DNA from: a bacterium
GTDB taxonomy: Bacteria > Aerophobota > Aerophobia > Aerophobales > AE-B3A
Direction: 5' to 3'
Assembly: GCA_046758525.1 (NCBI GenBank)
Contig: JBHIAL010000001.1
Location: 667 to 64,666, forward strand
Length of the DNA: 64,000 bases
Position 1 is the stretch's first letter. Each line of letters starts with the position of its first letter. This document shows, piece by piece, positions 5,934 to 60,359 of the stretch. The position numbers were made by a program, and so were the translations under genes. Below the pieces are notes generated by a model that did not search any database, was not told the origin of the DNA, and saw nothing but the letters and a program-made list of their open reading frames with translations.

Positions 5934-5937
5934 TGAA

Positions 5938-6481: not shown

Positions 6482-6482
6482 A

Positions 6483-8301: not shown

Positions 8302-8315
8302 TGGCAGGAAATTAA

Positions 8316-10930: not shown

Positions 10931-10940
10931 AGGAGTATTT

Positions 10941-13610: not shown

Positions 13611-13621
13611 GAGTAGAATGA

Positions 13622-14590
13622 ATGATTAAAAAGACGGTCTTGGTATGTGGAGCGGGGGGTTTTATAGGCAATCATCTTGTAAAGCGCCTGAAAAAAGACG
13701 GTTATTGGGTAAGGGGAGTGGATTTGAAATACCCAGAATATTCAAAAACTGAAGCGGATAATTTTGTTGTTGGTGATTTAACAGATATTACTTTTTGTCG
13801 AGGGATAATGGATAGACAATTTGATGAGGTATATAACCTCGCTGCTGATATGGGGGGAGCTGAGTATGTATTTACAGGCGATAACGATGCTAATATTATG
13901 TCCAATTCAGTAATGATTAATCTAAACATACTGAATACTTGTTATAAGAGAAACATAAAGCGCCTTTTTTATTCCTCTTCAGCGTGCTGCTATGCAGAAC
14001 ACAACCAGTTAGACCCACATAATCCAAAATGTTCTGAAGATTCTGCCTATCCTGCTAATCCTGACTCTGCCTATGGTTGGGAAAAACTGTTTAGTGAGCG
14101 TCTTTATAATGCCCATCATAGAAATTGTGGTATGGAAGTTAGGATTGGTCGCTATCATAATGTGTTTGGTCCCGAATGTACTTGGTTTGGAGGGAAGGAA
14201 AAAGCACCTGCTGCACTATGTAGGAAAGTGGCTGAAGTTGAATCTGGAGGAGGAATAGAGATATTTGGGGATGGGAAACAAACAAGGTCTTTTCTCTACA
14301 TTGATGAGTGCATTGAAGGTACTATCAGGCTTATGAAGTCGGATTATAATGAACCCATTAACATAGGCTCGGATGAAATGATAACAATAGACGAATTAGC
14401 CAAAAAGATAATGACTATTGCCAAGAAGGAATTAAAAATCAGGCATATAGATGGGCCTCAAGGGGTTAGGGGCAGAAACTCAGATAATACACTGATTAAA
14501 AAGGTCTTAGGCTGGGCTCCATCTGCTTCTTTGGATGAGGGGCTTAGAGTAACATATGACTGGATTTCAAAAAGGAGGGATATAACATGA
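13622..14590 (+). CDS. GDP-mannose 3,5-epimerase homologue (GME family)
   Basis: Block-by-block resemblance to plant GDP-mannose 3',5'-epimerase as I recall it, not an alignment I ran: GAGGFIGNHL; NLAADMGG; SSACCYAE; DSAYGWEKL; RIGRYHNVFGP; GGKEKAPAALCRK; GDGKQTRSF.YIDECIEG; NIGSDEMITI; GPQGVRGRNSDNTLIKKVLGWAP; EGLRVTYDWI. Confidence 0.75.
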   Translation: MIKKTVLVCGAGGFIGNHLVKRLKKDGYWVRGVDLKYPEYSKTEADNFVVGDLTDITFCRGIMDRQFDEVYNLAADMGGAEYVFTGDNDANIMSNSVMINLNILNTCYKRNIKRLFYSSSACCYAEHNQLDPHNPKCSEDSAYPANPDSAYGWEKLFSERLYNAHHRNCGMEVRIGRYHNVFGPECTWFGGKEKAPAALCRKVAEVESGGGIEIFGDGKQTRSFLYIDECIEGTIRLMKSDYNEPINIGSDEMITIDELAKKIMTIAKKELKIRHIDGPQGVRGRNSDNTLIKKVLGWAPSASLDEGLRVTYDWISKRRDIT

Positions 14591-16725: not shown

Positions 16726-17003
16726 ACAATCGGAGAAATTGCTTGACATTTTAATTATTTGTGTTTTTATTATGTGTAAGTGAGTATGCTAACGCAGTTT
16801 ACAATTGAAAAGATTAAAAGGGTTGTACAAGAGGAGGAGTCAAGAATCACTAACAACGATTTCTGTGGTTCTATAAGTATTAAACTGAATTTTCTTCATG
16901 GTTTGGTAAGGACGGTCGAAACATCCATAAACCAACATGAGCAACTCAAGAACTAAAATTTAAAATATATTAAAAATCTCATTAGCTTTACCAAAGCCTG
17001 AGA

Positions 17004-29569: not shown

Positions 29570-30466
29570 ATGCCTCAAGGAGCGCTCAGAGTTATTAACC
29601 GTATATTCCCCTACAATCCATCGTATCCAGTGCAGACAACGCCTGAATGGAGTACGCTTGTACCACAATATAGGGAGGCAGACCAGTCCAGAAGTCTTGT
29701 ATCTCGCCCAAAGAGGACATGGTCGCTTCAGTGGGATTCTCTTACTAAGATAGAAAAGGATGCAATTCGGGATTTCTACCACGCCCGTAAGGGGGGATTT
29801 GGGAAGTTTTTATTTTTGGCTTACAAGGATTATGATGATGATAGTCGTTCAGATATTATAGGTACAGCAGGCAGCAGCAGTAACACAACCCAAATCTATC
29901 TACAAAATGCCCCAGCAGAAGATGACCTATATAATAATTGGACTATAGAGATTGATGTTGGTTCTGGAGCAGAACATAAGATTATTACAGATTATGACGG
30001 CTCCAATCAAGTTGCTACGACACAGGCGTTTACTGCCTCAACAGCAGGCAAGCAATACACATTACGACAAAGTATTGGAGTAGGTAACGGTACAAAGACT
30101 GCTTTTGATTTAGTTAAAAATTACAACACTCATTCAGAAACCAAAAAGTATATGTATGATGAAAGTACGAGTGGGGGAGTATATGAACCAAAGGTTTGGA
30201 CACATGATGGTTCAACAATAACAACTCAAGTATGGAGTACGAATTATACATATACACAACATCTGTTTGCCAACAATGATAGACAATATTATGAAGGTCC
30301 CATTAATTTTGTAACTGCTCCCACAAATGGACATTCTGTAATTGCAAGCTGGTATTACCTGTATCCAGTAAGATTTCATCCAGATGATGCCCTGAACAAA
30401 AGTTTGTTCACAACAAATCTTTATGAACTCAATACAATAAGGTTGGTAGAAGTATATGAGTCCTAA
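29570..30466 (+). CDS. minor tail protein, lambda gpM-like N-terminal domain
   Basis: WSLQWDSLTKIEKDAIRDFYHARKGGFGKFLFLA parallels the lambda gpM block YSVTLSVPREEATVLESFLEEHGGWKSFLWTP. Confidence 0.45.
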   Translation: MPQGALRVINRIFPYNPSYPVQTTPEWSTLVPQYREADQSRSLVSRPKRTWSLQWDSLTKIEKDAIRDFYHARKGGFGKFLFLAYKDYDDDSRSDIIGTAGSSSNTTQIYLQNAPAEDDLYNNWTIEIDVGSGAEHKIITDYDGSNQVATTQAFTASTAGKQYTLRQSIGVGNGTKTAFDLVKNYNTHSETKKYMYDESTSGGVYEPKVWTHDGSTITTQVWSTNYTYTQHLFANNDRQYYEGPINFVTAPTNGHSVIASWYYLYPVRFHPDDALNKSLFTTNLYELNTIRLVEVYES

Positions 30467-31388
30467 ATCCACCACGACTAATTTCAATACCCAGAAGGAT
30501 GCCGAGCAGAATGCCCCATTTTATTTAATGGAACTTGATGGTTTGATTTGGGGTACTACAGGCAGTTCTTCAACATCAACAAACGTGTATCTTGGAGCGA
30601 GTGCAAGTTCTGTGGATGGTATTTATGATGGTCATCAATTGAAGGTGGGCGACCCTGAATCTACCACAGGTACTGAAACACGGACAATAAATACATATAC
30701 AGGCTCTACCAAGATAGCCAACGTTTCGACAGCATTTACAATCCCTACAGCATCTGTCAAATATGAAGTATCCAACACTTATTATTTTGCCAACTGGAGT
30801 AATGATGTTGTAATAGGAGCTACAACATACAAAAGTAGAGGATTTAATATAAGCGACCAAGGTATAACTGAAAATGCTATTGGGGAAGTGGATAGCTCAG
30901 ACATAATGATTGATGATGTTGATAGACAGATTGTATTATATGCCAATGCTTATAATTCATTCAAGGAAAGAGAACTTAGATTGCATACTATATTTCTCGA
31001 TGAATTAACAATTGCAGATGCCATTACGGATGTATTTGATGTCCGTACAGTTGCATTCAAACCTCCAGCAGCGTCTATTCTGGTAAGATTCGCAATCAAT
31101 CCCCAAGAAAACATGTTGCATTTGCGAACATGGCTTGCAGAGGGATGCCCTTGGAAGTATAAGGATTCAAATACATGTAGATACAACCCCGACAATATTG
31201 CCAATTTATTTGTACCAGGCCCTAATGGAGAAACAGACTTTTGCTCAAAGTCATTTCATGGGCCTTTTGGGTGTAAATTTGGTATAAGAGCCGATGGGGA
31301 ATTCAGACGTAATACAGAGAATTTCGGTGGAGCCCCTGGAATGCCAGACCCTCGTCTCATTGTATTTGTGCCCACAAAGGGGAGATAA
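30456..31388 (+). CDS. minor tail protein, lambda gpL-like (C-terminal Cys cluster)
   Basis: The C-terminus CPWKYKDSNTCRYNP...FCSKSFHGPFGCKFG has 4-5 cysteines. Lambda gpL coordinates an Fe-S cluster through C-terminal cysteines. Confidence 0.45.
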   Translation: MSPKSTTTNFNTQKDAEQNAPFYLMELDGLIWGTTGSSSTSTNVYLGASASSVDGIYDGHQLKVGDPESTTGTETRTINTYTGSTKIANVSTAFTIPTASVKYEVSNTYYFANWSNDVVIGATTYKSRGFNISDQGITENAIGEVDSSDIMIDDVDRQIVLYANAYNSFKERELRLHTIFLDELTIADAITDVFDVRTVAFKPPAASILVRFAINPQENMLHLRTWLAEGCPWKYKDSNTCRYNPDNIANLFVPGPNGETDFCSKSFHGPFGCKFGIRADGEFRRNTENFGGAPGMPDPRLIVFVPTKGR

Positions 31389-34300: not shown

Positions 34301-34858
34301 TATTATGAAATCAGGGAAGGACAATCATGGGAGGGGGGCACAACTGTCGCAACCAGAATAAGACAAACAACATGGAGTTTGATGAATATTCCAGAACCAG
34401 GTACTTATAAATACTTTATCAAAGCAATTGATAAATTCAGGGACGAATCTGAGGGCGCTACTGATTTTATTTTAGAGATACCTCCAGATAAAAATAGAAG
34501 GTTGATTTTTAGCAGGGATGAACGAGTAGAAGACTGGATATTTGAATCGTCCACAACAAGCGCCAACAGTGGAGATATACGTGAGGTATTCCTTGGTTCA
34601 GATGCCAGCGGAGAAGATGATTTCTACAATGATATGTTAGTAGAAGTGGAAAATGTAGGTTGGGGACATATAGAGGATTATGTTGGTTCTACAAAACTTG
34701 CAACATTGATGGCTGTTGATAAATTTTCATCCCCACCAAAATCAGGCAAGACCTATAAAATACGTAACACTGGAAACAGACTTTTCAGGACAGTAGAAGG
34801 AACCTTAATGCTGGCATCAAGAAAAAGATGGGACGATATGCGTATTTTCAACCCTTAA
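31394..34858 (+). CDS. central tail fiber / host specificity protein: gpI C-terminal-like hydrophobic Gly-rich N-terminus fused to gpJ-like body with fibronectin-III domain
   Basis: The N-terminus IILGGIQIITGTLMLLSG...LARIPRARTPKRPD parallels the lambda gpI C-terminus (...GGVAQMLAPKARTPRIQ). FN3-like segment VVPPNVEDFTASFDGNIIHFEWSAIADTDLDYYEIREG. 1154 aa. Confidence 0.6.
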   Translation: MAKIIPIILGGIQIITGTLMLLSGNPWGLMLMFTGAMSISTALARIPRARTPKRPDEVFSFMGAEARSEPGMPVGTHWGRNLVGGQLLQLSRDFERPGHTFEVLTMVIGIGEGKAEGFSGSLNEALNRIFVNDQSLKSLGIDSRIQFTDGTQDSPLDKVFADRLVTHYRQSTSLDDSEFSYTVQNKFAEGVEVGITFPEGLYGIDMTGDNAGSIRGAKVEFTMEFRDVTDPDNLGVWQSGLRNRTREQELLVINEFPGVGKVTDEISFTMPDEGGHFALDKIEFGAQFVDECLVNIIPDTGITFTNACTTFTFSIDGETGARTEDLTYQKSQNRIKRVCGTVTYTTSGNSYAVDISVTWSFRCIADINGIAMLLTGATLPDITELELTKNGQRTGVVLNVVESEGITSLSPAIKFRDQDRLGFYVIKGTWSGAQYVTLRGERVSKKDSTFQVIGGKWAQKTLNKDYEIFFPDNVSGAEKTHQIRISKKNFPGDSDTQQFNKATIVYVEEFEFGRLRYPNTALLALQFFPSSRLSGGTPQIKIVWDGQHVYTLMESGGTPTMKGFYDWANPSSDRRVWGRNPACILYTIYRDIIGVSASRLDLTSFKDVRDRAFANGITFDYSVATEVSFRDFIEDFKNATGFVPIRGNNGVIELTYDKAMFGETDTSAFSFNEKNIIDKPSLSLEWGGKPATKLPNAIEIQYRNAENNYAPETILLTREDLRDFEKLETVNVLLNGVTIREQALKKGNVILNTLRLEDITARWKTGTYGMHLQPTDIVDITHEDPGWSSKQFKITKLSRTLDEPNVMTLEAIEFNPDIYKRDGTPSYTPDKLTFRPPNAAPLNVLNLNVTLNKVEERLVLFITFDLPDDNNFSHAEIYLSEENNDTPILKGNSTGQFTIYHELIEKQLYTVSVTSVSIYNIRSFKSAESTIYIDPFIHVVPPNVEDFTASFDGNIIHFEWSAIADTDLDYYEIREGQSWEGGTTVATRIRQTTWSLMNIPEPGTYKYFIKAIDKFRDESEGATDFILEIPPDKNRRLIFSRDERVEDWIFESSTTSANSGDIREVFLGSDASGEDDFYNDMLVEVENVGWGHIEDYVGSTKLATLMAVDKFSSPPKSGKTYKIRNTGNRLFRTVEGTLMLASRKRWDDMRIFNP

Positions 34859-34876: not shown

Positions 34877-37432
34877 ATGTCTACAAACATATTTTTTGAC
34901 GATTTCGGGGGCACATACCCCTCAACAAACTGGATAGAAGATTCTGGCGCTAATGATTTAAATATATCATCTGGCGAATTAAGAAATGACGTTACAGGTG
35001 AAGTATTTGCTACTCATACAGGCACAACCATGCCAGCTATTAATGGCAAGGAAAATTATGCAGTTGAAGTTAGGATAAGAGTCTCCGCAGCAACAAATAA
35101 TTTTAGTGGGCTGATTGCACGATATACGGGGACAAGTGATTATTATTATGTAAAGGTAGATTGGGCAGGGAATAAGATAGAACTTAGAAAAAAGACAACG
35201 GCAGGCGGGGACGAGTTAATCCAATCTGTTAATAAGACAGTATTTTTTCTATCTGCTGGTAATTATTATTATATGAAATTCATTGTTAAGGATACTAATT
35301 TAAAAGTTTTCTTATCAAAAATTACTAATCTTGTTCTTCCTGTTTATGACGAGCCCCCCCTCTTCGATGTTACAGACACAAGTTTAGCTACGGGAAAACC
35401 AGGTGTCTGGGGAAATGCCAATGCTGCAAATGAATTATATTGGGATAATTTTAGCGTTGATGTAACAGAATTGTATGTTGATTTTGCATCTGGATTAGAC
35501 ACTAATAACGGAAGAACTCCAGCCAATGCAAAAAAACATATTCAGGATACAATTTATAGTTTTACACCATTTGGAACATATCAAAGCACTCCGTTAGGTA
35601 TAGATATAATTTTACGCAGAAACCAGATACACGATACATTATATAGCAGATTTGAAAACGAACATACATCATGGCGTTCAACTTTCCTCACATGGGCCCC
35701 AATAGGGCAGAGATACCTACCTTTAAAGCTTAAATCTGATAATGATACAATTGGAAGATGGACAGCAGACGCAGGTAATGCTATACCTGCCCAGTTAAAT
35801 TTCTACCGTTCCTACGGAGATGTTGGAGATAACCTGTCCCCATACATTGGACACTTCAAGAACCAAGTATTGGATGGGTTCATGGAAAGAACTGGTACAA
35901 CAGATTGGACTGCTGGTAACAGCGCAACATTATCAAAAGACACAGTTGAAAAAACATCAGGGAGCCAATCTCTCAAGGTTGTTGCGGGGGCAAGTGCAGG
36001 TTGGGCAGAACAATCAGGAGATTCAGTAAATAATTCGGGTAATTTCTTCGTTGGCGGTTATGGCTTCCGCTTTAGGAAATGGGAGTTCTCCTGTCGTTAC
36101 AAAGGCGCAAATTGCAGAATTATCATTGAAGATACAAGTAGTAATGTTATCTGGGATAGCGGAAACCTTAATAGTGCAGGCTGGTCAATTGCAACATTTA
36201 CGGTTGAATTCCCCCGACCAGGTAAAATCAAGCTATATGCTAATGCAGCCAGCGCAATCTCTTATTATGATGATGTAATCATTGCATACGATAAAACTAC
36301 AGAAAGACTCAGTGCCTTCCTTGCTGGGAATCATGTTTATTTTGATGATGTACGTTTTTACTATGACTTATCCAATTTATCATGGGCTGAATATACCAGC
36401 ATAATTGGCCCTAATCTTGGTGATTATACAGGCATACAGGCAATTGCTTATCAGTTTAAAGCATGCAGATTTACATCCAATCCTTCCATGTACGATGGTG
36501 GATGGGAGACATTAATTTTCTCCAGATATGGAGATGATGATATGACTTTGTTTGATACCTGTAATATTGATAATAATACGTCTAACTCAGGAGAAGTTTT
36601 CTGGGGGCAATTCCGTAACGTAAAACTAAAGAAATGTACCATAGAGAATGTAGCAGAAGTCCTGAACGCAGGAGGAAACTTTATCTGGGAGGATTGCAAG
36701 ATTGGCACAGTTAATAAAAAGGTTGCTCAACCTATTGGTGTAAGTGGCGGATTTGAAACATTTGGGTATCTGCGAGTATACTCGAAAGGGTGTGAGTATC
36801 ATTATACAGGCGCTGCCATTGTGAATGATTCTATGCTAACTACAGATATGATAAATGCACAACCACCTAATGATAACTATATCATACTTGAAGACTACGG
36901 AGACCAAGGAGCGACAGTAAAAGGGACCCGATGGGGATATAGAAGATTAGGTAATGTAAAATATAACACTGATTATACATACAAGTCTCAAAATTCATGG
37001 CGAGCTGAAGGAAATGTAAATACAAACACAACTGAACCTTTATTAATAATTGAATATCCAGGACTACGACTTAATAATCCTCAAGATATTGAAATACGTG
37101 TTATGCCTCGTGAGGGATGGACTACATTACCCACAACCTATATTGACGGCACAACAATAAGCGGTTTGTGGTTTGAAATAGAGTATTATAATAGTGCATT
37201 AAACGCTGATGTCATTAAACGATATAGTTATCAGGAGACACAACAACCATTAGCAGAGAATGTGTGGACTCCAATCAAGATTTCCTCAAGTAATTATACC
37301 TTCAACGCTCCAGGATTTGTCTCTACCATAAGGGTTTATTTGTCAACAGGCGAAGCAGGGAAGTATGTTTATGTAGATGGAGTGCCCAAAGTCTCAAATG
37401 TAAATTTCCAACCAGATTTGGTAGGATGGTAG
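34877..37432 (+). CDS. receptor-binding / tail fiber protein with N-terminal concanavalin-A-like (LamG-type) domain
   Basis: 851 aa. Its N-terminal ~150 aa are paralogous to the N-terminus of the next gene: F.DDF......NW.E...L.I.S..L.ND....GLIAR....YY. Confidence 0.5.
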   Translation: MSTNIFFDDFGGTYPSTNWIEDSGANDLNISSGELRNDVTGEVFATHTGTTMPAINGKENYAVEVRIRVSAATNNFSGLIARYTGTSDYYYVKVDWAGNKIELRKKTTAGGDELIQSVNKTVFFLSAGNYYYMKFIVKDTNLKVFLSKITNLVLPVYDEPPLFDVTDTSLATGKPGVWGNANAANELYWDNFSVDVTELYVDFASGLDTNNGRTPANAKKHIQDTIYSFTPFGTYQSTPLGIDIILRRNQIHDTLYSRFENEHTSWRSTFLTWAPIGQRYLPLKLKSDNDTIGRWTADAGNAIPAQLNFYRSYGDVGDNLSPYIGHFKNQVLDGFMERTGTTDWTAGNSATLSKDTVEKTSGSQSLKVVAGASAGWAEQSGDSVNNSGNFFVGGYGFRFRKWEFSCRYKGANCRIIIEDTSSNVIWDSGNLNSAGWSIATFTVEFPRPGKIKLYANAASAISYYDDVIIAYDKTTERLSAFLAGNHVYFDDVRFYYDLSNLSWAEYTSIIGPNLGDYTGIQAIAYQFKACRFTSNPSMYDGGWETLIFSRYGDDDMTLFDTCNIDNNTSNSGEVFWGQFRNVKLKKCTIENVAEVLNAGGNFIWEDCKIGTVNKKVAQPIGVSGGFETFGYLRVYSKGCEYHYTGAAIVNDSMLTTDMINAQPPNDNYIILEDYGDQGATVKGTRWGYRRLGNVKYNTDYTYKSQNSWRAEGNVNTNTTEPLLIIEYPGLRLNNPQDIEIRVMPREGWTTLPTTYIDGTTISGLWFEIEYYNSALNADVIKRYSYQETQQPLAENVWTPIKISSSNYTFNAPGFVSTIRVYLSTGEAGKYVYVDGVPKVSNVNFQPDLVGW

Positions 37433-37443
37433 GGGTTTAATAT

Positions 37444-40400
37444 ATGGCACAACTCGTTTTTGAAGATGATTTTGACAGAGCAGACAGTTCAGATTTAGGC
37501 TCAAACTGGGATGAATTTGACACAGGATTATCAATTGCAAGTAATAAACTAAGTAATGATACATCTGCTGGTTTAAGTGGTACTGCTGTATATACAGGAG
37601 TAGTGCTGAACAACCAAGAAGTGCAGGCTATTGTGAGCACATCCTCTATTGGAGGCGCATCAGACAACGCTAATGGACTGATTGCAAGGCGGGCTAATAG
37701 TAGCTATTATTCTATTCACATGAATTGGGACACAGGGGAGCTTAAACTTCAAAAGAATGTCAGTGGAGTCTGGACAACACTTGGGAGTATCATTAAGACT
37801 GTCGCTATAAATACAGATTATCTATTAAGGCTTATTTGTAAAGGTAATTCAATTGAGGCATGGTTTGACAAGGTGGGAGAGGAGAAAGGAGTTGCCCAAA
37901 TAAGTGTAGAGGATAGTTCCATTAGTTCTGGAAGTGCTGGGGTCAGAGCACCTTTTGTCTTTGGTGTAAATGAGGTTACATGGAATGATTTTAAAATATT
38001 CAATCTTAATGTGCCTGCTGAGGGCTTTGTTACGCCAAATAAGATTTTTTTACAAACAATTAATAATATACCATCAGATAACATTAATCTTAACTCCGCA
38101 ATAAGAAATCCAAATAGCGGTACATGGGAAGATTTGAAATGGGGGGATAAACGTATAGAAAACTACAAATACTGGGCATATCCTTTTAATGATGGTAAAT
38201 ACACATCCCCCATTATAGATTTGGGTAAACAAGATAATACTGGTACAACCACTGCCCCAAATTCCACTACAATTGCATTAAATACCACAGCCTCCGACAA
38301 AGACGATTTCTATAACAACTGGGATATAACCGTTGTTGATAATGGGAGTATTAAGAAGGGAAAGATAACTGATTATTTTGGCAGCTCAAGAGTAGCTGTA
38401 CTGGATTTCACTATAGTAAATCAGGTAACTAATACCCCAGTAACACTCAGTGGCAAGGTTTTTTATAATACCAAAATAAAGATTATTCCACGTATTACAC
38501 AACATACAACTAATTATACACCAGAGAGTCTGCAGATGGATGATAATGGAAGAGTACGTCTAAATATCAAAGGCAAATGCAATATTATGAAATCCCGAAC
38601 AGGTTATAAGGGGGAGTTCGGAAGGAAAGCCACAAATGCTCTGACCCAATTGAATTATTTTTGGATTGATAGCAACAGACAATTTGTATTTGTATCAAAA
38701 AGGGGGGATGACTTTATACAAAAATTAAACTATAAAGACCTTTCAATAGTGCAGGAGGTTGATAATTCCGACATTGGTATTACATTCGGAGATGAAAGAG
38801 ACGGACTTGGAGGTATTACAGGAGACAGTGAATATATTTATTACCTGTATAATAATGATGAGGAAGCTGCTTCGGCAAGTTATGTAATCAAGCGACGCCA
38901 ATCGGATTTGGCATTCATAGACAAAAAATCTACTCTAACAGGGGATTCAACAGCGCTCAATATTAGTTCTGATACAGGACTTTGGTGGGATGGGACTAAT
39001 CTATTCATCTGCGACAAGTATAATGATAGAGTGATTAAAAGTGATTCCACATTGGCATATATTGCGGATTATTTGGATGCCACTAATTTTACCCCTATAA
39101 GTGTTTGGGGAGGGAGCAGCTCCGAATCAAGTATATATGTATTAAATAATCATACAATTGAGAAATCAGCAAGGAGAATCACCAAGTCCACCATGTCCCT
39201 GAACGGCACAAGTACAGTAAACCTGACATTCCCTCGATATATTTTTGGTGATGGGGCAGGAGCGCCCAACATATATATACTTGAGGCACAATCATATCCT
39301 AAATCTAACAGACTTTTGAGGCTGGACGCCACTTTGGCAGTTGTTATTGGAGAAACCGATAAACTTGGGCCGAACAATGAAAAAAGCTACTTTGGAGGAG
39401 GTTTTGGAAATGTTTTTAATAACCAAATCTATCTATCATTCAGGCGATTGCATATCATGGATACTATGAATGTCGATTTAACATGGGGAGGCACAGAGAA
39501 GACATCGCCAAGTTCCACAGCAGATTCCATACCTCAATTTGCATCAATTACGGGAGATGACAAACATTTTTATATTAGCGACCATAATACCCAAAGAATC
39601 ATCAAGGTTAATCGTAATACACTTATTCCCATAACTACCACACCCCATTTCTTTGATTTGGTAGGAGGCGATTTTACAAAAATTGAAAGGGCAATGCGCT
39701 CTGATGATTCACATTTATATATAACAATCGACACATATAGCAATCCAGACAAGATAATTAAAGTCAGGAAGGACACGATGCAGATTGAAAAAATCGGATT
39801 GTTAGCAGATGGAGCTACAAATTATTCCCCTGCGCTGTACGAAGGAATGGCTGTTGATGGAGGCTTCATCTACATTTCAAATGGTTTTGGGGAATTTACC
39901 AAATGGAAAACATCCGATTTAAGCTTTGTCGCCAGCAACACCAACACCAACAAGGCGGAGATTAATTCTCCTCGCAGCTTATGGGCGGACGGAGATTATA
40001 TTTATGTAACAAATCACCGTAAACTTACAGGTAAAACAGACTACAGCATTTCAATCTTGAGTGCAAAAACATCAACATTTGGGAATTTTCTTACATCCTA
40101 TGAATTCTCAAAGTTTGACCGCCCTTATGGAATCACTGGCGATACGACCGAAGGTTATCTATATACAACCAATATTGGAGAAGACACTACGACATTTAAT
40201 ATTCTTGGAGAACCTGTTACTGTTTATGATTCATTTATTACGAAGATTCAATATGATAGAGATATAGGATTTCTTTACTCTGCTACATTAAACTTTGGAA
40301 GTCAGGGTTTGGGAAAATCAAACTTTGACCGTCCAAGGTCAATCCATGTAGATAGTGATTATATATTTATTGCAGATAGTGGAAATTACCGCATTATGCG

Positions 40401-41148
40401 CAGATACAAGGATGTTTATTTCAGGGTCAAATTATTAACAGATGAAAGTACATCGGATGGATTACCCAGTAAGGTAAATGACGCCTATAGAGGATATGAT
40501 ATTGTGCTTGTAAACCACCCAGAAATATCACAATTCAAGTCCAGACGGAAGGTTATAAGTTATAATGCACGAACAAACCGTATCAGGGTTGCAAGAAGTA
40601 ACCCCCTGTTTGTAAAAGCCGTTAATAAACTAAATAACGTCCGATATAGAATGGTTTATAAAAGTGAATACTTTGATGATGTACAAAATATACACAAAAA
40701 TCCTAAAATAAGGATAAAGACATCAGATAGGGATTCGCTACTCACATCCATACCTTGGGAGAGTTATTCACCACAAAAAGAATACAGCGCCGTACGATTT
40801 GTCCAGTATGATTCAAAATTTGAGGTAAAAGACCACCAGGCAAATATAGAAGTTGATACTATACAGTTTAAAGCTCATATAGTGCTTCAAAATGATGGGG
40901 GAACTAATATTAGCATTCCTTCTTCTACAGATGCAACAAAGATATTCTTTAATAAAAGATTTAATGAAATACCAAGAATCAATGCCACAGTTGATAGCAC
41001 AACGGCTGCTTATGCCGTTGTATCAAATGCAACAATAATAGATACAACCAATTACCCCCCTTTTGGAGGTTTTGACGTTAGATTATTTGATGGCGCTGGA
41101 ACGCAAATAGCAGGTACACTGCTAAGCTGGACAGCAACAGAATTTTAG
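37444..41148 (+). CDS. receptor-binding / tail fiber protein: ConA-like N-terminal domain plus NHL-type beta-propeller repeats
   Basis: 1234 aa. N-terminus paralogous to 34877..37432. NHL-like repeats: DRPYGITGDTTEGYLYTTN; DRPRSIHVDSDYIFIADSGNYRIMRR; PRSLWADGDYIYVTNHRK; KHFYISDHNTQRIIKV. Confidence 0.5.
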   Translation: MAQLVFEDDFDRADSSDLGSNWDEFDTGLSIASNKLSNDTSAGLSGTAVYTGVVLNNQEVQAIVSTSSIGGASDNANGLIARRANSSYYSIHMNWDTGELKLQKNVSGVWTTLGSIIKTVAINTDYLLRLICKGNSIEAWFDKVGEEKGVAQISVEDSSISSGSAGVRAPFVFGVNEVTWNDFKIFNLNVPAEGFVTPNKIFLQTINNIPSDNINLNSAIRNPNSGTWEDLKWGDKRIENYKYWAYPFNDGKYTSPIIDLGKQDNTGTTTAPNSTTIALNTTASDKDDFYNNWDITVVDNGSIKKGKITDYFGSSRVAVLDFTIVNQVTNTPVTLSGKVFYNTKIKIIPRITQHTTNYTPESLQMDDNGRVRLNIKGKCNIMKSRTGYKGEFGRKATNALTQLNYFWIDSNRQFVFVSKRGDDFIQKLNYKDLSIVQEVDNSDIGITFGDERDGLGGITGDSEYIYYLYNNDEEAASASYVIKRRQSDLAFIDKKSTLTGDSTALNISSDTGLWWDGTNLFICDKYNDRVIKSDSTLAYIADYLDATNFTPISVWGGSSSESSIYVLNNHTIEKSARRITKSTMSLNGTSTVNLTFPRYIFGDGAGAPNIYILEAQSYPKSNRLLRLDATLAVVIGETDKLGPNNEKSYFGGGFGNVFNNQIYLSFRRLHIMDTMNVDLTWGGTEKTSPSSTADSIPQFASITGDDKHFYISDHNTQRIIKVNRNTLIPITTTPHFFDLVGGDFTKIERAMRSDDSHLYITIDTYSNPDKIIKVRKDTMQIEKIGLLADGATNYSPALYEGMAVDGGFIYISNGFGEFTKWKTSDLSFVASNTNTNKAEINSPRSLWADGDYIYVTNHRKLTGKTDYSISILSAKTSTFGNFLTSYEFSKFDRPYGITGDTTEGYLYTTNIGEDTTTFNILGEPVTVYDSFITKIQYDRDIGFLYSATLNFGSQGLGKSNFDRPRSIHVDSDYIFIADSGNYRIMRRYKDVYFRVKLLTDESTSDGLPSKVNDAYRGYDIVLVNHPEISQFKSRRKVISYNARTNRIRVARSNPLFVKAVNKLNNVRYRMVYKSEYFDDVQNIHKNPKIRIKTSDRDSLLTSIPWESYSPQKEYSAVRFVQYDSKFEVKDHQANIEVDTIQFKAHIVLQNDGGTNISIPSSTDATKIFFNKRFNEIPRINATVDSTTAAYAVVSNATIIDTTNYPPFGGFDVRLFDGAGTQIAGTLLSWTATEF

Positions 41149-41166: not shown

Positions 41167-42129
41167 ATGGGACAAGCTTGGCCTGGCATGGGAGAAGATT
41201 TACACGATAATAGAGGAGTTCTTGATGGAAGAACAAATACATTAAGGAGCAATTTTTCTGGTACATCATGGCCCACTGATGATGTAAGTGAGGGGCAGAC
41301 ATCTTATAATACTACTACAGGACTTCTTGGTTTGAGAAAGAGCGATGCTTATGTTCCTTTAAACGCAATAATAGAAAACCGCCTTTTTTACAAGAACCTT
41401 GTTATTACAAACAATGCAACCACTCCTGCAACCCAACTGGATATAAGTGCAGATTTTATTTCATGTAATGGGTATGCTATAACAAGTGCAACAACTTGGA
41501 CACTTGATGCAGGGCAGACACAGACTGCTGATGAGGCTAACAAAAGGGATTCAGCCACAGGATTAGTAGCCGATACATGGTATTTCATCTACTTGATAGT
41601 AGATACAGGAGCTTCAGAACCTCTGGGGCAGTCTCCCACCTTTGCAACAATACTCTCTACAAACTCTACAACGCCAACATTAACATCCTCTGGTTACGAT
41701 AAATTTGTTAGAATAGGCGCAGTGAGAACACTAAGCGGAGCTGCAACATTCAGGGAATTCCAACAAACAGATAACGTTGTTTTTTACACTGATGGTAGCT
41801 CAGATACAGACACGAACATTCTCTCAACAGCTACTCCAGCTACTTCTTTTACAGACTTAACTATAGCACAACTTGGTAAATCTGTACCAAATGACGGTAC
41901 AAACTATTTTTCTCGGAAAATATTCTTTTATGCTACAAAGGCTACATCGGGGACTATAAACGTGAGACCCAATAATTCACCGTCCACAAATGGGGTATCT
42001 CCAGAGGTTCTTTCTGCATTACCTAAGCCATATATTCCAATGCCTATTGCAAAGACAGGTCTGGAATATAAAGCGTCAACACAGACACAAGTAGACCTGT
42101 ATGTGGCTGGTTATGTTGATATTATTTAA
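41167..42129 (+). CDS. putative tail fiber-associated structural protein
   Basis: 320 aa, Thr/Ser-rich. It is the last gene of the plus-strand structural block. Confidence 0.35.
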   Translation: MGQAWPGMGEDLHDNRGVLDGRTNTLRSNFSGTSWPTDDVSEGQTSYNTTTGLLGLRKSDAYVPLNAIIENRLFYKNLVITNNATTPATQLDISADFISCNGYAITSATTWTLDAGQTQTADEANKRDSATGLVADTWYFIYLIVDTGASEPLGQSPTFATILSTNSTTPTLTSSGYDKFVRIGAVRTLSGAATFREFQQTDNVVFYTDGSSDTDTNILSTATPATSFTDLTIAQLGKSVPNDGTNYFSRKIFFYATKATSGTINVRPNNSPSTNGVSPEVLSALPKPYIPMPIAKTGLEYKASTQTQVDLYVAGYVDII

Positions 42130-44296: not shown

Positions 44297-46441
44297 ATGG
44301 AGAAAAGTGATAAGTGGAAAGACAAGTTTTTAAACAAAATTACTCAGGGCGATTGCCTTGAATTGCTGAAAGAACTGCCTGACGAGAGCATTGACTGTGT
44401 AATCACCTCTCCGCCGTACTGGGGGCTTCGGGACTACGGAGTTAATGAGCAGTTAGGCTTAGAACCTACATTTAAAGAGTATATTAACAACATCTGCAAT
44501 ATTTTTGACGAGGTCAAGCGGGTGTTGAAAAAGACTGGTACATGCTGGGTGAATATCGCTGATACCTACTGGGGTGGAGGTAATAATCGAGGTAATAATT
44601 CTCCTATTTCAGATAAGCAAAGCAGTAATCGTGGAGCGGTAGGGCAGGTGCAAATGGACTGGGATGGCGCCTTACCCAATAAGTGTCTTGTTGGCATCCC
44701 TGAGCGCTTTGTGATTGAAATGACGGATAGAGGGTGGATACGGCGTAATACGATAATCTGGCATAAGCCGAACTGTATGCCCACCAGCGCAGGTGACAGG
44801 TTTACGGTGGACTTTGAATACCTGTACTTCTTTGCTAAAAGCACAAAGTATTGTTTTGAGCGACAGTTTGAGCCGCTTTGCTTAGATATAAAAAAGCGGG
44901 CAAAGACAAATAATAATTCCGCAAAATCTGACACACAGGATTCTTATATATCTAACGAAAACACAAGGAAATATTTCAATAAGGTTTTAAGCGGTAAAAT
45001 ACAAGGGCGCAACATGCGAACCGTTTGGACTATACCAACGCAATCTTATAGCGAAGCACACTTTGCGTGTGTAACGCCTGATACAGAGATATTAACTATC
45101 GATGGATGGAAAAAATACACGGACATTAAATGGTATGGGAAAAGCAGCCCTCAGCATATTTTGGTTGCCACCTACAATATTAAGAAAAAAACTATTGAGT
45201 ATCAACCGTTAAGTTATATTAGAGAATACGACTTTAATGGAAAACTAATTAAAATCGGGAATAGAGATTTAGATGTTTTGATGACACCGAACCACCGAAA
45301 TATCGTAAAGAAAAAAATAGGAAAAGAAGAAATTGTATTAGCCGATAAACTTGCATATCTCGATAAAATTAGAGTTCATGCTCCCATAAAATATCCAGAA
45401 ACCTCTGGTATAGGAAGAACCTTTGCAGAGTTAATTGGTTGGATTATTTCGGAAGGTCATTATAAAAAAGGTGGCTATATTGAACTTTATCAAAATGAAG
45501 GTAATAGTGCAAAACGAATAGATTACCTTTTGCGAAAATTAGAAATATCACATACAAGAAAATTAAGAAATAAAATTTATAGGGGGCAAAACAAGGGGCA
45601 AGTTACTTGGTTTCTCAAGAAATCGCCTTTGATAGAATGGTGTTTAGCAAACATAAAATATAAACAACTTAATAAATTTTTAGTATCGTTACCTTTAACA
45701 GAAGTAAGGGCATTGTTTAATGGTTTAATTGCAGGGGATGGTCATAAAAGAAAAGATGATGGAAGGTTGTCTTTTGTGCAGAATAACAAACAGACAAAGG
45801 ATTGGTTTCAAATATTGGCATTCAGACTTGGGTATCATTCTATGCAAAAAGGCAATACGATTTATTTAACAAAAAGAACACATATCGGTATTAGAAAAAC
45901 TAATGGATGTGGTAAAAACATAAAGAAGATAAACTATGATGGTAAAGTTTGGTGTCCTAAAACTAAGAACGGAACATGGGTTGCCCGCAGAAATGGCAAG
46001 ATATTTATTACTGGCAATACATTTCCTGAGCGTCTAATCGAGATACCTATAAAGGCGGGATGCCCTGAGAAGATTTGTAGGAAATGCGGGAAGGCAAGGG
46101 AAATGATAATTGCGGTTGATTATGTTCCCGTTGGTGTTAAAAGTAACAACGAAAAATATGCAGAGAATACGCCATCAGACAATACCAATCCTGGGCCAGC
46201 AGGGATGAGGCATGGCAGAGCAAGGGCAATCCGTAACACCGCAGGTTATACCGATTGTGGATGCAACGCCGGCTACAACCCTGGGGTTGTTTTGGATTTA
46301 TTCATGGGTTCGGGTACAACAGCTTTAGTTGCCCTTAAGCTTAACCGTAACTTCATAGGTTTTGAACTATCTCAAAAGTATATTGATATGGCTGACAAAC
46401 GCATCCAACAGGAACTCAGGCAGGGGAATTTTTTGAGGTGA
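44297..46441 (+). CDS. DNA methyltransferase (beta-class N6-adenine/N4-cytosine amino-MTase, SPPY motif) interrupted by an intein
   Basis: N-terminal extein: GDCLELLKELPDESIDCVITSPPYW...KRVLKKTGTCWVNI. C-terminal extein: TFPERL...LDLFMGSGTTALVALKLNRNFIGFELS. The junction HFA|TFPERL is the conserved HxAxFPxxL motif split by the insert. Confidence 0.8.
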   Translation: MEKSDKWKDKFLNKITQGDCLELLKELPDESIDCVITSPPYWGLRDYGVNEQLGLEPTFKEYINNICNIFDEVKRVLKKTGTCWVNIADTYWGGGNNRGNNSPISDKQSSNRGAVGQVQMDWDGALPNKCLVGIPERFVIEMTDRGWIRRNTIIWHKPNCMPTSAGDRFTVDFEYLYFFAKSTKYCFERQFEPLCLDIKKRAKTNNNSAKSDTQDSYISNENTRKYFNKVLSGKIQGRNMRTVWTIPTQSYSEAHFACVTPDTEILTIDGWKKYTDIKWYGKSSPQHILVATYNIKKKTIEYQPLSYIREYDFNGKLIKIGNRDLDVLMTPNHRNIVKKKIGKEEIVLADKLAYLDKIRVHAPIKYPETSGIGRTFAELIGWIISEGHYKKGGYIELYQNEGNSAKRIDYLLRKLEISHTRKLRNKIYRGQNKGQVTWFLKKSPLIEWCLANIKYKQLNKFLVSLPLTEVRALFNGLIAGDGHKRKDDGRLSFVQNNKQTKDWFQILAFRLGYHSMQKGNTIYLTKRTHIGIRKTNGCGKNIKKINYDGKVWCPKTKNGTWVARRNGKIFITGNTFPERLIEIPIKAGCPEKICRKCGKAREMIIAVDYVPVGVKSNNEKYAENTPSDNTNPGPAGMRHGRARAIRNTAGYTDCGCNAGYNPGVVLDLFMGSGTTALVALKLNRNFIGFELSQKYIDMADKRIQQELRQGNFLR
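45068..46018 (+). mobile_element. intein (317 aa) with LAGLIDADG-type homing endonuclease domain
   Basis: Starts CVTPDTEILTIDG (Hint block A). Block B is LMTPNHR. Two LAGLIDADG-like motifs (ELIGWIISEGH and LFNGLIAGDGH). Ends ...FITGN followed by Thr+1 (TFPE). Confidence 0.7.
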
Positions 46442-57959: not shown

Positions 57960-58155
57960 TTACGCTCCTTGGCACTATGTGCGCCAACTCTAATCTCCGC
58001 CTTGTACCACACACAACACACTTTGTTTTGTAGAATCTCATAATGCTCTTATATTTTGTTGGTGTAATCTTTTCTTTTATTCTATCCTTACACTGACTAC
58101 ATTGTTTATAAGTAGGTTTTGTTATTTCGTTTTCTTCTATCATGTAAAGCTCCAA
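57883..58155 (-). CDS. HNH endonuclease
   Basis: CSQCKD...CVVCG...LELAHIVP...CKQHHREIFHG. Confidence 0.55.
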   Translation of the reverse strand: MELYMIEENEITKPTYKQCSQCKDRIKEKITPTKYKSIMRFYKTKCVVCGTRRRLELAHIVPRSVIVCNSIYNLLPMCKQHHREIFHGER

Positions 58156-60359
58156 TCCTTACCTATTTCTACATCTACATTTAGCACATTCTTCATTTCA
58201 GGTATGATTTGAGATGGAGATTCCTTTATGATATTTACTATGTCTTTTATAATATCTTTTTTAATTAAATCTTTTCTAACATAGAAGTCAATCTCATCGT
58301 GTACAGTATTACATATATATACCCCATTAAATCCTGCTCTATATACTTGAATACCTGCATTAATCGTAATATCTGATGCCAAACTCTGTATTATTGTGTT
58401 AACTGCCAACCTTTTTACTCTGTCTGAGTCTTCTTCTCTGTTTAAGTCTCTCCATCTATTGGTATAAGGAACATCAATCCTTTTTGTTCTTAGGGCTTTA
58501 TTTCTTACGGAAGCAATCCACCGAGCCACTTTTGGGAAAGCTGGGAAGAATGTTCTGATAACTTCCTCATCCATAAGTCCATACATTACTCCCAAAACTC
58601 TTGGTTTTAATGCCTGTCTTTCCTCTTTTGTGGGTAGCCCTCTATACATCCGCTTAAAAATAAATGTATAAACATCACTTGTATTTAGAAGTTCCTTATC
58701 CCCCGCTAATAATGCCAACACTTTAGGCTCAATCTGTTGGAAATCTATGCTTACAAAGTCATGCCCTTCTGGGGCTATGAATAACTTCCTGAACTCAGGG
58801 TCTCTGGGGATATTTTGAACATTGAATGGTTTTCCAGAACTCACCCGACCTGTTTCAGTAAAATGTAAATTATAATTAGTATGAATCCTGTCCATGCCTA
58901 AATAGGGTTCAATGTATGTGGATAAGAGTTTTTGAGTCTTTTTGAATCCAGTCAGTAATTTACATAGTGGGTGGTCAATGTTACTAATAATATCACTTCT
59001 TACAGAGTAATTGTTTTTTGGCGTTTTAGACAATTTAACCCCATCTTTTCTTAGAAATCCTGCTACTTGCTTGGGGGATGCTGGATTAAATTTTTCGTCT
59101 TTTACAAAAGCTATAATATTGTTGTGTGTATCATCATACAACCTCTTGTATTTGGGTAAGAGTGTGTTTTCCAAATGTCCAGAATCTATAAGTAAACCAC
59201 GGGATTCTACATCAGACAGCATAGGAATAGCATTGCACAATAAGCTATAAGCAGGTTCTCTTTTAGGAATTTTATTATGTAAATATGTAGTGAGCACGAC
59301 ATCAGACTTATTATATTCATATAGTTCCTCTTTAGGTATCTCGCCTATTTTAGCTGGGTCAACTTCTTTGATTTGGTTAATTGAAACACCATAAGCCTTC
59401 GCAATGTTTTTTAATTTATTACTAACTATTTTACCCCCAACCATTCCCGAATCTAAATAATGAGCCAACATTACATCGTGTAATCTTCCCTTGACGTTGA
59501 TGTTGGCTATCTTTTTAAGGGCGTTGCAATCAAATTTTGCATTAAACAACACTTTAGGAATATTTGGATTCTCCAGTAATTTTTTATAGCTTTCAACCTG
59601 AGAATTCTTTACCCAATCTACTACAATACATTTTTGGTCTTGTGTTCCAAACCCAATAGAAAGCAAATCTACCTCTTTTGTAAACAGTTCTACTCCTGTA
59701 GTTTCTACATCGAAAGTAATTGCTCCATTGTTTAGGCTATCAAAGAACCAAGTCCTTGCTTCTAAATTACCCCCATCAACCTTGTATTCATTTTCAATTT
59801 TGGGGGCATCACCATAAACAAGTTCCTTCATTCTTTGGAACGAGCCCTTATATCTTTGAGTTTCATAAGGTTTATAATTTAAATATGATGGATGTAATAA
59901 TGGTATTACTTTACCAAATTTAGATTCTTGTAGAGTTCCTTCAATATCTGTTATCTTTAATCTTTTATTATTTAAAATCGTAGAAGTAGCTGTATCACCA
60001 AGAGTTACAATAAATTCTGGTTTTAGCTCTTTAATTGTATGTTCTATAATGGGATAACATAGCCCTATTTCATCTTTGGTAGGGGGTCTTACACCACCTT
60101 CTTTGGTTGTGGTACGACAGCATACAGTATTACCAATTGAAACGTCATTCCAAGGGATGCCCACAAAATTAACTATATCTCTGAAAATCTTTCCTGCTTT
60201 TCCTACGAGAGGTTCGCCTGTTACCTCTTCTGAAGCACCTGGAACTTCTGCAACAAACAGTATCTTATTACCTATTGTTTTATTGGGTACATATGGACGA
60301 TTCAATAGGGGGCATTTATTGCAATTCTCTTTATTGTATTCTGGTTTTTGCCTAACCAT
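58140..60359 (-). CDS. family A DNA polymerase with N-terminal UDG family-4-like domain and 3'-5' exonuclease domain
   Basis: N-terminus VAEVPGASEEVTGEPLVGKAGKIF...NTVCCRTT matches the UDG-4 pattern GE.PG..Ed..G.PFvG.AG.lL...N...CRPP. PolA motifs include ICNTVHDEIDFYV (motif C) and RQALKPRVLGVMYGL. Confidence 0.75.
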   Translation of the reverse strand: MVRQKPEYNKENCNKCPLLNRPYVPNKTIGNKILFVAEVPGASEEVTGEPLVGKAGKIFRDIVNFVGIPWNDVSIGNTVCCRTTTKEGGVRPPTKDEIGLCYPIIEHTIKELKPEFIVTLGDTATSTILNNKRLKITDIEGTLQESKFGKVIPLLHPSYLNYKPYETQRYKGSFQRMKELVYGDAPKIENEYKVDGGNLEARTWFFDSLNNGAITFDVETTGVELFTKEVDLLSIGFGTQDQKCIVVDWVKNSQVESYKKLLENPNIPKVLFNAKFDCNALKKIANINVKGRLHDVMLAHYLDSGMVGGKIVSNKLKNIAKAYGVSINQIKEVDPAKIGEIPKEELYEYNKSDVVLTTYLHNKIPKREPAYSLLCNAIPMLSDVESRGLLIDSGHLENTLLPKYKRLYDDTHNNIIAFVKDEKFNPASPKQVAGFLRKDGVKLSKTPKNNYSVRSDIISNIDHPLCKLLTGFKKTQKLLSTYIEPYLGMDRIHTNYNLHFTETGRVSSGKPFNVQNIPRDPEFRKLFIAPEGHDFVSIDFQQIEPKVLALLAGDKELLNTSDVYTFIFKRMYRGLPTKEERQALKPRVLGVMYGLMDEEVIRTFFPAFPKVARWIASVRNKALRTKRIDVPYTNRWRDLNREEDSDRVKRLAVNTIIQSLASDITINAGIQVYRAGFNGVYICNTVHDEIDFYVRKDLIKKDIIKDIVNIIKESPSQIIPEMKNVLNVDVEIGKDWSFT

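Follow-up and report, generated by a model that had tools for sequence, protein, structure and literature searches.

Predicted accessory tail-tip proteins with putative lectin heads, one of them bearing NHL-like blades, in a novel siphovirus

Two large neighbouring genes, p1 and p2, in the tail operon of a novel ~77 kb siphovirus probably encode accessory proteins of the tail tip (side fibres or peripheral adhesins), which would carry putative lectin heads and take part in multivalent adhesion (estimated probability, about 0.6). Gene order, paralogy, and orthologues come from computation, as do the ConA-like fold, the NHL repeats, and two insertions. In the window (the whole 64,000-nucleotide stretch of DNA that was analysed), p1 (34877..37432, + strand) and p2 (37444..41148, + strand) are open reading frames of 851 and 1234 aa, respectively, as originally predicted. 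A Shine-Dalgarno-like purine run lies upstream of both (RBS-like AGGA in the case of p1), with intergenic gaps of 18 and 11 nt. The operon runs from the TMP gene (25658) through the genes for a DUF2460 Dit-like, a tail-L-like hub, and a Phage-tail_3 J-like protein to p1, p2, and ORF41167, the genes being closely packed and co-oriented with an RBS-like run before each. The last gene of the module (41167..42129, + strand) encodes a 320-aa protein that is 39–44% identical to the product of the final gene of the matching module in the related phages L001 and L002, and has no match in Pfam or PHROG.

Related phages are rare. Four of them (L001–L004) keep the identical gene order, and orthologues of both p1 and p2 are found among the related phages, located in at least three of these between the J-like and the terminal 320-aa genes. 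The content of the slot between the J-like and NHL genes differs among L001–L004, and this variability fits a host-range locus. The two genes have a tail-module location 3' of the central-fibre/host-specificity gene with conserved synteny, and it is from this gene position and from the domain types that we infer receptor binding by p1 and p2. A different origin, as passenger genes for adhesin-like proteins that are not virion components, would be consistent with the N-terminal domain and the NHL repeats being far commoner in cellular than in phage proteins, and with the finding of no phage family annotation for either p1 or p2. It is nevertheless very improbable, as the genes lie inside the co-oriented and closely packed operon, their orthologues hold the same position in other phages, p1 and p2 both lack a signal-peptide-like start, and p2 has gained a mini-domain that is also found on the Dit-like, hub-like, and J-like proteins.

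The N-terminal domains of p1 (aa 1–195; 34877..35461, + strand) and p2 (aa 1–190; 37444..38013, + strand) are paralogues. In the pairwise BLASTP check, residues 1–194 of p1 aligned with residues 1–185 of p2 (28% identity; E = 1e-10), which upholds the paralogy anticipated in the original prediction with a domain length of ~190 instead of ~150 aa. Both proteins contain the motifs F6..D8-D9-F10, NW (residues 18–19 in p1 and 21–22 in p2), G78-LIAR-82, and YY at around residue 90. The AlphaFold model of p1 residues 1–200 is all-beta with ~13 strands (pLDDT, 85–97), and has the jelly roll of ~180–200 aa with two antiparallel beta sheets that characterizes the ConA-like lectin/glucanase superfamily. 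In the Foldseek comparison with the PDB, the best match of the p1 domain was CBM66 (4b1m/4azz; TM, 0.79–0.82; rmsd, 3.1), and other matches were GH16 glucanases, L-type lectins, and the GALC lectin domain; phage matches included CBM2 of the J-1 evolved Dit, Douge baseplate proteins, and actinophage minor tail proteins and putative RBPs. When p1 and p2 were searched directly against Pfam, no model was reached for the N-terminal domain, nor did its profile find any sequence of the PDB. The sequence link to the ConA clan runs through an intermediate, the protein P0004, two domains of which are matched by p1 (E = 2e-11 and 2e-8) and in turn match PF06439 (E = 6e-21) and also GH59_C. Members of the domain family match five Pfam models of the ConA clan, including DUF1080 (PF06439), LamG_3 (Laminin_G_3), and GH59_C, and among the 38 scanned rows of one alignment (A6), nearly all of them segments of this domain, 7 matched PF06439, 5 GH59_C, and 5 LamG_3. 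The ConA/LamG-like assignment made at the outset is supported by the predicted fold and, transitively, by the family hits. The p1 and p2 domains share the predicted jelly-roll fold of the CBM66/DUF1080 (PF06439) modules (TM, 0.8 to CBM66), and, like the siphophage CBMs that occur in minor tail proteins and evolved Dit (such as Lactobacillus phage J-1 CBM2; PDB, 5ly8), are part of a tail-tip protein, but one that is separate from Dit and has the domain at its N-terminus.

Each of the two N-terminal domains scores 75–85 bits against its counterpart in related phages versus 54 bits against its neighbour. Since the domains are closer to these counterparts than to each other, the duplication did not take place recently in this genome; of the duplication and diversification originally suggested, the paralogy stands, and it is old as judged from these scores. 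Iterating jackhmmer locally over the hits that had been retrieved gave a family, which includes the p2 domain, of 132 copies across 68 proteins; most often, two or three copies stand in tandem at the C-terminus of a large non-phage protein, together with PKD, SBBP, and GH123-like domains.

Phage fibres are usually docked through the N-terminus, with their C-terminal parts binding the receptor. In keeping with this polarity, the shared domain might be a common docking adaptor that fits into similar tail-tip sites, much like the conserved N-termini in phages that have more than one receptor-binding protein, and leaves receptor binding to the C-terminal parts; it occupies the N-terminus of p1 and p2 and likewise of the orthologues P0066 and P0006, and p1 and p2 are encoded side by side in the tail operon. 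We consider such a role unlikely for the domain, because P0005, a p2 orthologue with the same synteny, is devoid of it. Furthermore, conservation within p1 is lowest in this domain (24–32% identity to the orthologues of 341/343 aa, as compared with 52–56% for the C-terminal domain), its family is mostly found in the non-phage context described above, and its nearest folds are carbohydrate-binding modules and lectins. The absence from P0005 points to an accessory lectin and not a virion anchor, and the domain would then be an optional, fast-evolving, putative glycan-binding head of the accessory tail-tip proteins. The relatives in PF06439 include enzymes (3-keto-disaccharide hydrolases), and a catalytic role for the domain is thereby also conceivable.

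Between its N-terminal domain and a conserved C-terminal beta domain, p1 contains a large extra segment. The orthologues in related phages are only 341–343 aa long, and in those of L001 and L002 the N- and C-terminal domains adjoin directly in BLAST alignments; p1 is therefore the 343-aa orthologue with a unique insert of ~500 aa (aa 196–691; 35462..36949, + strand). The insert is absent from the orthologues, searches of phage and viral collections yielded no homologues of it, and AlphaFold modelled it with pLDDT mostly <50. Within it, a CBM4/9-like module (aa 321–478; 35837..36310, + strand) was delineated by its similarity over ~140 aa (E = 4e-13) to repeats found in P0003, a baseplate-type protein; pLDDT rises to 58–78 at aa 400–450, the match of the insert to Pfam CBM_4_9 is at E = 0.55 only, and a PDB profile search with the module found nothing. 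The C-terminal beta domain (aa 692–851; 36950..37432, + strand), the best-conserved part of p1, is predicted by AlphaFold to consist of beta strands (pLDDT, 55–77).

A different function, as enzymes degrading surface polysaccharide, could be envisaged for p1 and/or p2, either through a beta-helix depolymerase in the p1 insert or through NHL propellers of the lyase/lactonase type. Related phages have a separate Beta_helix protein (293–325 aa) in the module, while the window has no such gene and p1 is longer by ~500 aa. By eye, a beta-helix-like periodic motif is discernible in the insert, with hydrophobic residues around a cysteine repeating every 25–35 aa (residues 486–643) and an N-cap-like stretch at residues 199–225. 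In contrast, hhalign gave a probability of 0.2% when the insert was compared with these Beta_helix proteins, and p1 and p2 are both free of hydrolase, lyase, and beta-helix matches in Pfam and PHROGs, the Pfam Beta_helix model included. Together with the low pLDDT of the insert and the CBM_4_9 score given above, these results lend no support to the depolymerase-like module that had been proposed for one of the paralogues. As for the propellers, some NHL-related six-bladed families are enzymatic, and NHL-rich matches also hit the Arylesterase, SGL, and Str_synth models, but the nearest NHL matches of p2 are the non-enzymatic TRIM71-type blades. Taken over both proteins, an enzymatic function is quite improbable, and accessory adhesion proteins remain our preferred reading.

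In p2, whose orthologues P0005 (E = 1e-126) and P0006 (E = 1e-110) occur in matching gene order, the ConA-like domain is combined with NHL-like blades. Residues 947–990 match all blades of the TRIM71 NHL propeller in a phmmer search of the PDB (E = 5.6e-8). An independent NHL HMM, seeded with a TRIM71 blade and comprising 636 repeats from which p2 and its orthologues were left out, matched p2 at E = 5.8e-30, with six blades at iE < 0.01 (residues 508, 701, 800, 839, 890, and 949); none of 100 shuffles gave a comparable match. Self-iteration from the canonical blade recovered 10 repeats versus 1–2 in shuffled controls. The Pfam NHL model, on the other hand, reached 18.2 bits (cut-off, 20) on a single stretch of p2, residues 961–984, whereas the orthologue P0006 clears the cut-off with 30 bits. 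The NHL assignment is accordingly supported by the independent profile and falls short of the Pfam threshold, and the repeats number about twelve in place of the four first noticed.

The twelve blade-like core strands, spaced by 44–69 aa, fall into blades 1–6 (aa 401–690; 38644..39513, + strand; core strands at aa 414, 464, 520, 564, 610, and 662) and blades 7–12 (aa 691–995; 39514..40428, + strand; core strands at aa 709, 758, 809, 853, 905, and 974). In the first set, aa 508–536 match the independent profile at iE = 9e-9; in the second, five blades do so at iE < 0.01, in addition to the TRIM71 match. The final blade is canonical, as in the TRIM71/Brat NHL domain (PF01436), and most of the others are degenerate, p2 as a whole scoring under the Pfam cut-off. 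The count of twelve suggests a 2 x 6 arrangement, and two six-bladed beta-propellers are likely on the basis of repeat counting; the AlphaFold model of residues 186–1234, the structure prediction called for originally, is too poor to display propellers (mean pLDDT, 44.6), and its Foldseek matches, to the tandem-propeller proteins LRP6 P3E3P4E4, PorZ, and BT4663, are at TM ~0.3 or less.

NHL repeats are rare in phage tail proteins, in agreement with the original prediction: there is no PHROG family for them, and p2 has no similarity to 50,697 phage records in tblastn. The sole report within the literature searched concerns the tail fibres of the Nitratiruptor phages NrS-2 and NrS-3, with six NHL repeats (PMC9723563); as in NrS-2, the repeats of p2 are in a siphophage tail protein, with twelve blades versus six. 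A functional analogy may be drawn with the receptor-binding protein Gp45 of Staphylococcus phage phi11, which contains a five-bladed propeller (PMC4901313) and is likewise a siphophage tail-tip protein with a propeller as the presumed platform for glycan recognition, although its single propeller belongs to an unrelated sequence family and homology to p2 was not detected.

The blades of p2 are flanked by conserved segments. On the N-terminal side, aa 191–265 (38014..38238, + strand) are 36–46% identical in P0005, P0006, and P0008, and constitute a candidate virion-attachment region; P0005, though lacking the N-terminal domain, retains aa 194–262 at 46–48% identity. On the C-terminal side, aa 996–1234 (40429..41148, + strand), consisting of a mini-domain-like segment followed by beta-sandwich domains, are 30–43% identical to P0005, P0006, and P0007, with a weak LtfC-like beta-sandwich match in Pfam (E = 0.19) and beta strands predicted by AlphaFold (pLDDT, 55–70). 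Judged by their conservation, the C-terminal parts may act as anchors, but a common receptor would explain this conservation equally well.

A mini-domain of ~65 aa (38239..38463, + strand; HMM iE = 5e-29) is present in p2 of this phage only; alignment A3 with P0005, P0006, and P0008 shows it to be cleanly inserted. Further copies were identified in the Dit-like protein (29879..30076, + strand; iE = 1e-29), the hub-like protein (30570..30785, + strand; iE = 6e-27), and close to the C-terminus of the J-like protein (34583..34771, + strand; iE = 1e-21). The Dit-like copy is kept in L001 and L002, where it has an unchanged location, the hub-like copy is likewise kept in these two, and the J-like copy in L001, L002, and L004. 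The mini-domain has no relative in Pfam, PHROG, or the PDB. In the Dit-like protein, the best DUF2460 stretch starts from residue 161, at profile position 89, inside the last residues of the mini-domain copy.

Altogether, the phage would be an uncultured siphovirus with an RcGTA/lambda-like tail tip, in which p1 and p2 serve as side-fibre or peripheral-adhesin proteins; from the above we infer that they are virion components and bind glycans, and likewise their oligomeric state and attached end. Their CBM66-like lectin domains would be optional glycan-binding heads and not anchors. The p1 protein is a local form of the conserved 343-aa two-domain protein, enlarged by the insert with its putative CBM-like jelly roll, and p2 would display its twelve or so blades, most likely as two six-bladed propellers, between the conserved segments aa 191–400 and 996–1234, which probably attach it to the tail and make the distal end. 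With the mini-domains of the Dit-like, hub-like, and J-like proteins and the extra copy in p2 as additional binding modules, the tail tip could bear many weak carbohydrate-binding sites, through which reversible multivalent adhesion to the host surface polysaccharide may precede engagement of the envelope by the J-like protein. As such, p1 and p2 look like a rare yet otherwise conventional modular host-adhesion apparatus and no new type of system. A bolder reading, which we regard as doubtful, combines two modules without earlier description: the mini-domain would be a mobile oligosaccharide-binding unit that spread anew into p2 and, at the same time, the tandem twelve-blade double propeller would be the main receptor-binding head on a fibre of inverted polarity, with the conserved C-proximal parts on the virion and the N-terminal lectin heads outward. 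If both parts held true, the tail tip would represent a new architecture of siphophage host recognition, beyond another modular fibre.

The proposed tail tip has a parallel in RcGTA, in which three proteins (distal tail, hub, and megatron) are all equipped for oligosaccharide binding by a domain of their own, amounting to 21 sites per tail (PMC7296036). The RcGTA genes g12 (DUF2460), g13 (hub), and g15 (megatron) have an equivalent set upstream of p1 and p2 (DUF2460, L-like hub, and Phage-tail_3 J/megatron-like), and the mini-domain may play a part parallel to that of the small extra domain on several RcGTA tail-tip proteins. The two systems differ in that the window proteins do not match the solved chains of RcGTA in sequence, and in that RcGTA has a fibre protein of 371 aa that is of another type than p1 and p2.

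The plus strand of the window carries a full siphovirus structural module (Pfam/PHROG-type assignments), consisting of the large terminase (1483), the portal, S78 protease, HK97-type capsid and tail tube proteins, a 1302-aa tape-measure protein, a DUF2460 distal-tail-like protein (29570; Dit-like), a tail-L-like hub (30456; hub-like), and a 1154-aa Phage-tail_3/'central tail fiber J' protein (31394; J-like). Directly after the J-like gene, on the same strand, come the genes of the two large proteins studied here, p1 (851 aa; 34877..37432) and p2 (1234 aa; 37444..41148), and then a 320-aa ORF (41167..42129), the last of the module, whose product has no family match though it is kept in related phages (39–44% identity). 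These genes are separated by gaps of 11–18 nt, each being preceded by a purine-rich RBS-like run. That p1 and p2 derive from passenger genes and are absent from the virion is considered highly improbable. The replication module (RNR, primase, RecA, a PolA-UDG fusion, and DnaB) is encoded on the opposite strand, no deposited phage has a capsid protein more than 35% identical to the one encoded here, and the sequence belongs to a 76.9-kb contig (NCBI, MAG).

As originally predicted, p1 and p2 begin with paralogous domains (N-domains): residues 1–194 of p1 align with residues 1–185 of p2 (pairwise BLASTP; 28% identity, E=1e-10), and every motif quoted in the prediction is found in both proteins, with the domain spanning ~190 aa rather than the proposed ~150 aa. 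The N-domain is a widespread unit of ~180 aa, with 132 copies in 68 retrieved proteins (local jackhmmer over the exhaustive-search hits), most often found in tandem, two or three in a row, at the C-terminal end of a large protein, and in other cases forming a stand-alone protein of ~200 aa. The N-domains of p1 and p2 have no direct Pfam match, and the N-domain profile gave no significant match among PDB sequences; related copies match PF06439 (3-keto-disaccharide hydrolase/DUF1080), the GH59 C-terminal lectin domain, Laminin_G_3, DUF6250, and GH43_C2, all five of which are ConA-like. Residues 1–200 of p1 were modeled as an all-beta domain with pLDDT of 85–97 (AlphaFold2, 36-sequence alignment), for which Foldseek ranked the CBM66 of Bacillus subtilis levanase first in the PDB (TM, 0.79–0.82; rmsd, 3.1 Å), followed by GH16 glucanases, L-type lectins, and the galactocerebrosidase lectin domain. 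Two phage structures are also among the matches, the evolved Dit of Lactobacillus phage J-1 (its CBM2) and the Douge baseplate proteins, and the best matches among predicted viral structures are actinophage minor tail proteins and putative receptor-binding proteins. The ConA/LamG-like assignment is thus well supported by both the predicted fold and the Pfam matches of related copies; finding such a domain in a siphophage tail tip is nothing unusual.

The N-domain of p1 scores 85 bits against that of a 343-aa protein on the Hainich contig of a related phage (L002), and the N-domain of p2 scores 75 bits against that of its relative P0006, as compared with 54 bits between the two neighbors. Because both N-domains match their counterparts in other phages better than they match each other, the paralogy is old; the predicted duplication, if read as a recent tandem event in this genome, is rejected on the same pattern. 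Another relative of p2, P0005, is without an N-domain, yet keeps a segment matching p2 residues 194–262 at 46–48% identity, and the domain is dispensable for the NHL protein. Within p1, conservation is lowest in the N-domain (24–32% identity) and highest in the C-terminal domain (52–56%). The absence from P0005 and the low identity in p1 argue against a shared virion anchor, making it unlikely that the N-domain is a common docking adaptor, and favor an accessory, fast-evolving binding domain.

p1 corresponds to a two-domain protein of 343 aa that has here been enlarged by an insert of ~497 aa (residues 195–691; window 35462–36949, plus strand) that is absent from the 341/343-aa orthologues. 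The sole detectable likeness of this insert resides in a ~140-aa module common to the repeats of a baseplate-type protein (P0003), which matches CBM_4_9 weakly (Pfam, E=0.55) and whose profile found no significant match among PDB sequences. The remainder of the insert shows, by eye, a beta-helix-like periodicity, which would be in line with an enzymatic, depolymerase role of p1/p2; the insert does not resemble the Beta_helix proteins encoded by related phages (hhalign probability, 0.2%) and was modeled by AlphaFold2 with pLDDT <50, so that the depolymerase-like module suggested in the original prediction is unsupported and such a role quite doubtful. A separate Beta_helix gene (293–325 aa), which related phages have after the NHL gene, is missing from the window; fusion of this protein into p1 was considered and rejected on the same lack of similarity.

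The NHL repeats predicted in p2 stayed below the cut-off of the Pfam model (18.2 bits in one stretch; cut-off, 20) and were upheld by three other tests. Residues 947–990 can be aligned with all blades of the TRIM71 NHL propeller, whose structure is solved (E=5.6e-8); iteration within p2 from this blade yielded 10 repeats, as compared with 1–2 in shuffled controls; and an independent NHL HMM, seeded with a TRIM71 blade and comprising 636 repeats with p2 and its orthologues left out, matched p2 at E=5.8e-30, with six blades at iE<0.01 and four more marginal ones in phase, while no comparable match occurred in 100 shuffles. P0006 clears the Pfam cut-off at 30 bits. The core strands of the blades lie at residues 414, 464, 520, 564, 610, 662, 709, 758, 809, 853, 905, and 974, a spacing of 44–69 aa that gives twelve blade units, the same count as in P0005. 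From these twelve NHL-like repeats, we infer that p2 would form two six-bladed propellers; the two halves show no similarity to each other by BLAST (best E=0.03). The model of p2 residues 186–1234 has a mean pLDDT of 44.6 (AlphaFold2, five-sequence alignment), and its best Foldseek matches, indicative only at a TM of ~0.3 or less, are the tandem-propeller proteins LRP6 P3E3P4E4, PorZ, and BT4663.

Residues 266–337 of p2 constitute a clean insertion of ~70 aa, missing in P0005, P0006, and the short relative P0008, which is a copy of a ~65-aa motif (mini-domain) with the consensus ...T.I.L...AS..DDFYNNW.I.V......I..Y.GST..AT.... The Dit-like, hub-like, and J-like proteins each have one further copy of the mini-domain, which related phages carry at matching positions (HMM iE, 1e-9 to 1e-30), giving four consecutive mini-domain-bearing tail-tip proteins in the window (29879–30076, 30570–30785, 34583–34771, and 38239–38463); the mini-domain is found on the related contigs L001, L002, and L004. 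The first three copies are kept in related phages, and that of p2 is a lineage-specific insertion. The strongest DUF2460 stretch of the Dit-like protein begins in the final residues of the motif, at profile position 89. Three canonical copies are present in a fibre-like protein (P0121), and tblastn located the mini-domain in three deposited phages (Microcystis Mae-JY22, Ochrobactrum vB_OspM_OC, and Klebsiella phiKp_32), in one of which the protein is labeled a structural component of the baseplate. The mini-domain has no match in Pfam, PHROG, or the PDB, and the Dit-like and hub-like profiles have no significant match among PDB sequences. In RcGTA, whose tail tip has the same DUF2460, hub, and megatron gene set as the window, an oligosaccharide-binding domain is present in each of the distal tail, hub, and megatron proteins, amounting to 21 sites per tail (PMC7296036); by analogy, the mini-domain may play the role of these domains.

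The p2 family is very rare: among representatives of ~15 billion proteins, it comprises two full-length orthologues, P0005 (960 aa, E=1e-126) and P0006 (1132 aa, E=1e-110), and two short relatives, P0007 and P0008, that are apparent fragments. All came solely from the exhaustive HMMER search, and their sources are a 97.8-kb Hainich groundwater contig and several Logan assemblies; when p1, p2, or a mixed alignment was used to query proteins through a word index, almost nothing past self matches was returned. Neither megablast nor tblastn matched p1 or p2 in 50,697 phage records, IMG/VR scans with p1 and the conserved p2 C-terminus gave no relatives, a metagenome scan found the Hainich contig again and nothing else, and a GTDB genome scan had no match and therefore provided no host clue. 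The module order in the relatives is TMP, DUF2460, L-like hub, J-like, the 341/343-aa protein, a variable slot, the NHL protein, the Beta_helix protein (293–325 aa), and a ~320-aa protein. The Hainich-relative locus is a hot spot for module exchange. On that contig, an additional 1008-aa fibre protein (PTL_trimer and SO2946-like_C) and a 107-aa ORF occupy the slot that separates the p1 orthologue from the NHL gene (5499–9908), and an IS605 OrfB/TnpB element (15793–16914) lies just downstream of the tail module.

We propose, with a probability of about 60%, that p1 and p2 are accessory tail-tip adhesins binding host surface glycans. Together they would present ConA-like lectin domains, the CBM-like module, two NHL propellers, and one mini-domain, and, joined by the mini-domains that the Dit-like, hub-like, and J-like proteins carry, would bind these glycans in a multivalent and reversible manner; the conserved segments (p2 191–400 and 996–1234; p1 692–851) presumably give attachment and oligomerisation. 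Siphophage tail tips are well known to carry ConA-like CBMs, and a propeller has been described in the receptor-binding protein Gp45 of phi11 (PMC4901313). NHL repeats are, as predicted, uncommon in phage fibres, with a single prior report, among the papers searched, from the siphophage tail fibre of Nitratiruptor phages NrS-2 and NrS-3 (PMC9723563). What sets the present case apart is that twelve blades stand in tandem, that the family is rare, that the N-terminal lectin domain is optional, and that two insertions are specific to this lineage. Modular tail proteins joining lectin-type domains and propellers decide which hosts can be attached to, and p1/p2 offer a clear case of domain insertion and loss in one host-range locus, leaving the understanding of phage adsorption unchanged. 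If they bind glycans, they would contain new carbohydrate-binding modules and open a route to identifying the host of a groundwater or sediment phage lineage.

Elsewhere in the window, a glycosylation island on the plus strand (9646–16725) lies between the terminase and portal genes and encodes four GT2 glycosyltransferases, one of them of 712 aa with two GT2 regions, two NAD-dependent epimerase/dehydratases, and one radical-SAM/SPASM protein. Just upstream (8672–9529) is a 285-aa protein with a CarboxypepD_reg/SdrD_B/prealbumin-like Ig-type domain, which may be a decoration or adhesion protein. A 714-aa N6/N4 DNA methyltransferase (44297–46441) has two Pfam stretches parted by an insert of ~350 aa with a LAGLIDADG_3 domain; the insert is a probable intein, because the region around 'FACVTPDTEIL' resembles an intein N-terminal splice junction. 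On the minus strand, a 739-aa ORF (58140–60359) combines an N-terminal uracil-DNA glycosylase-superfamily domain with a 3'-5' exonuclease and PolA (family A DNA polymerase).
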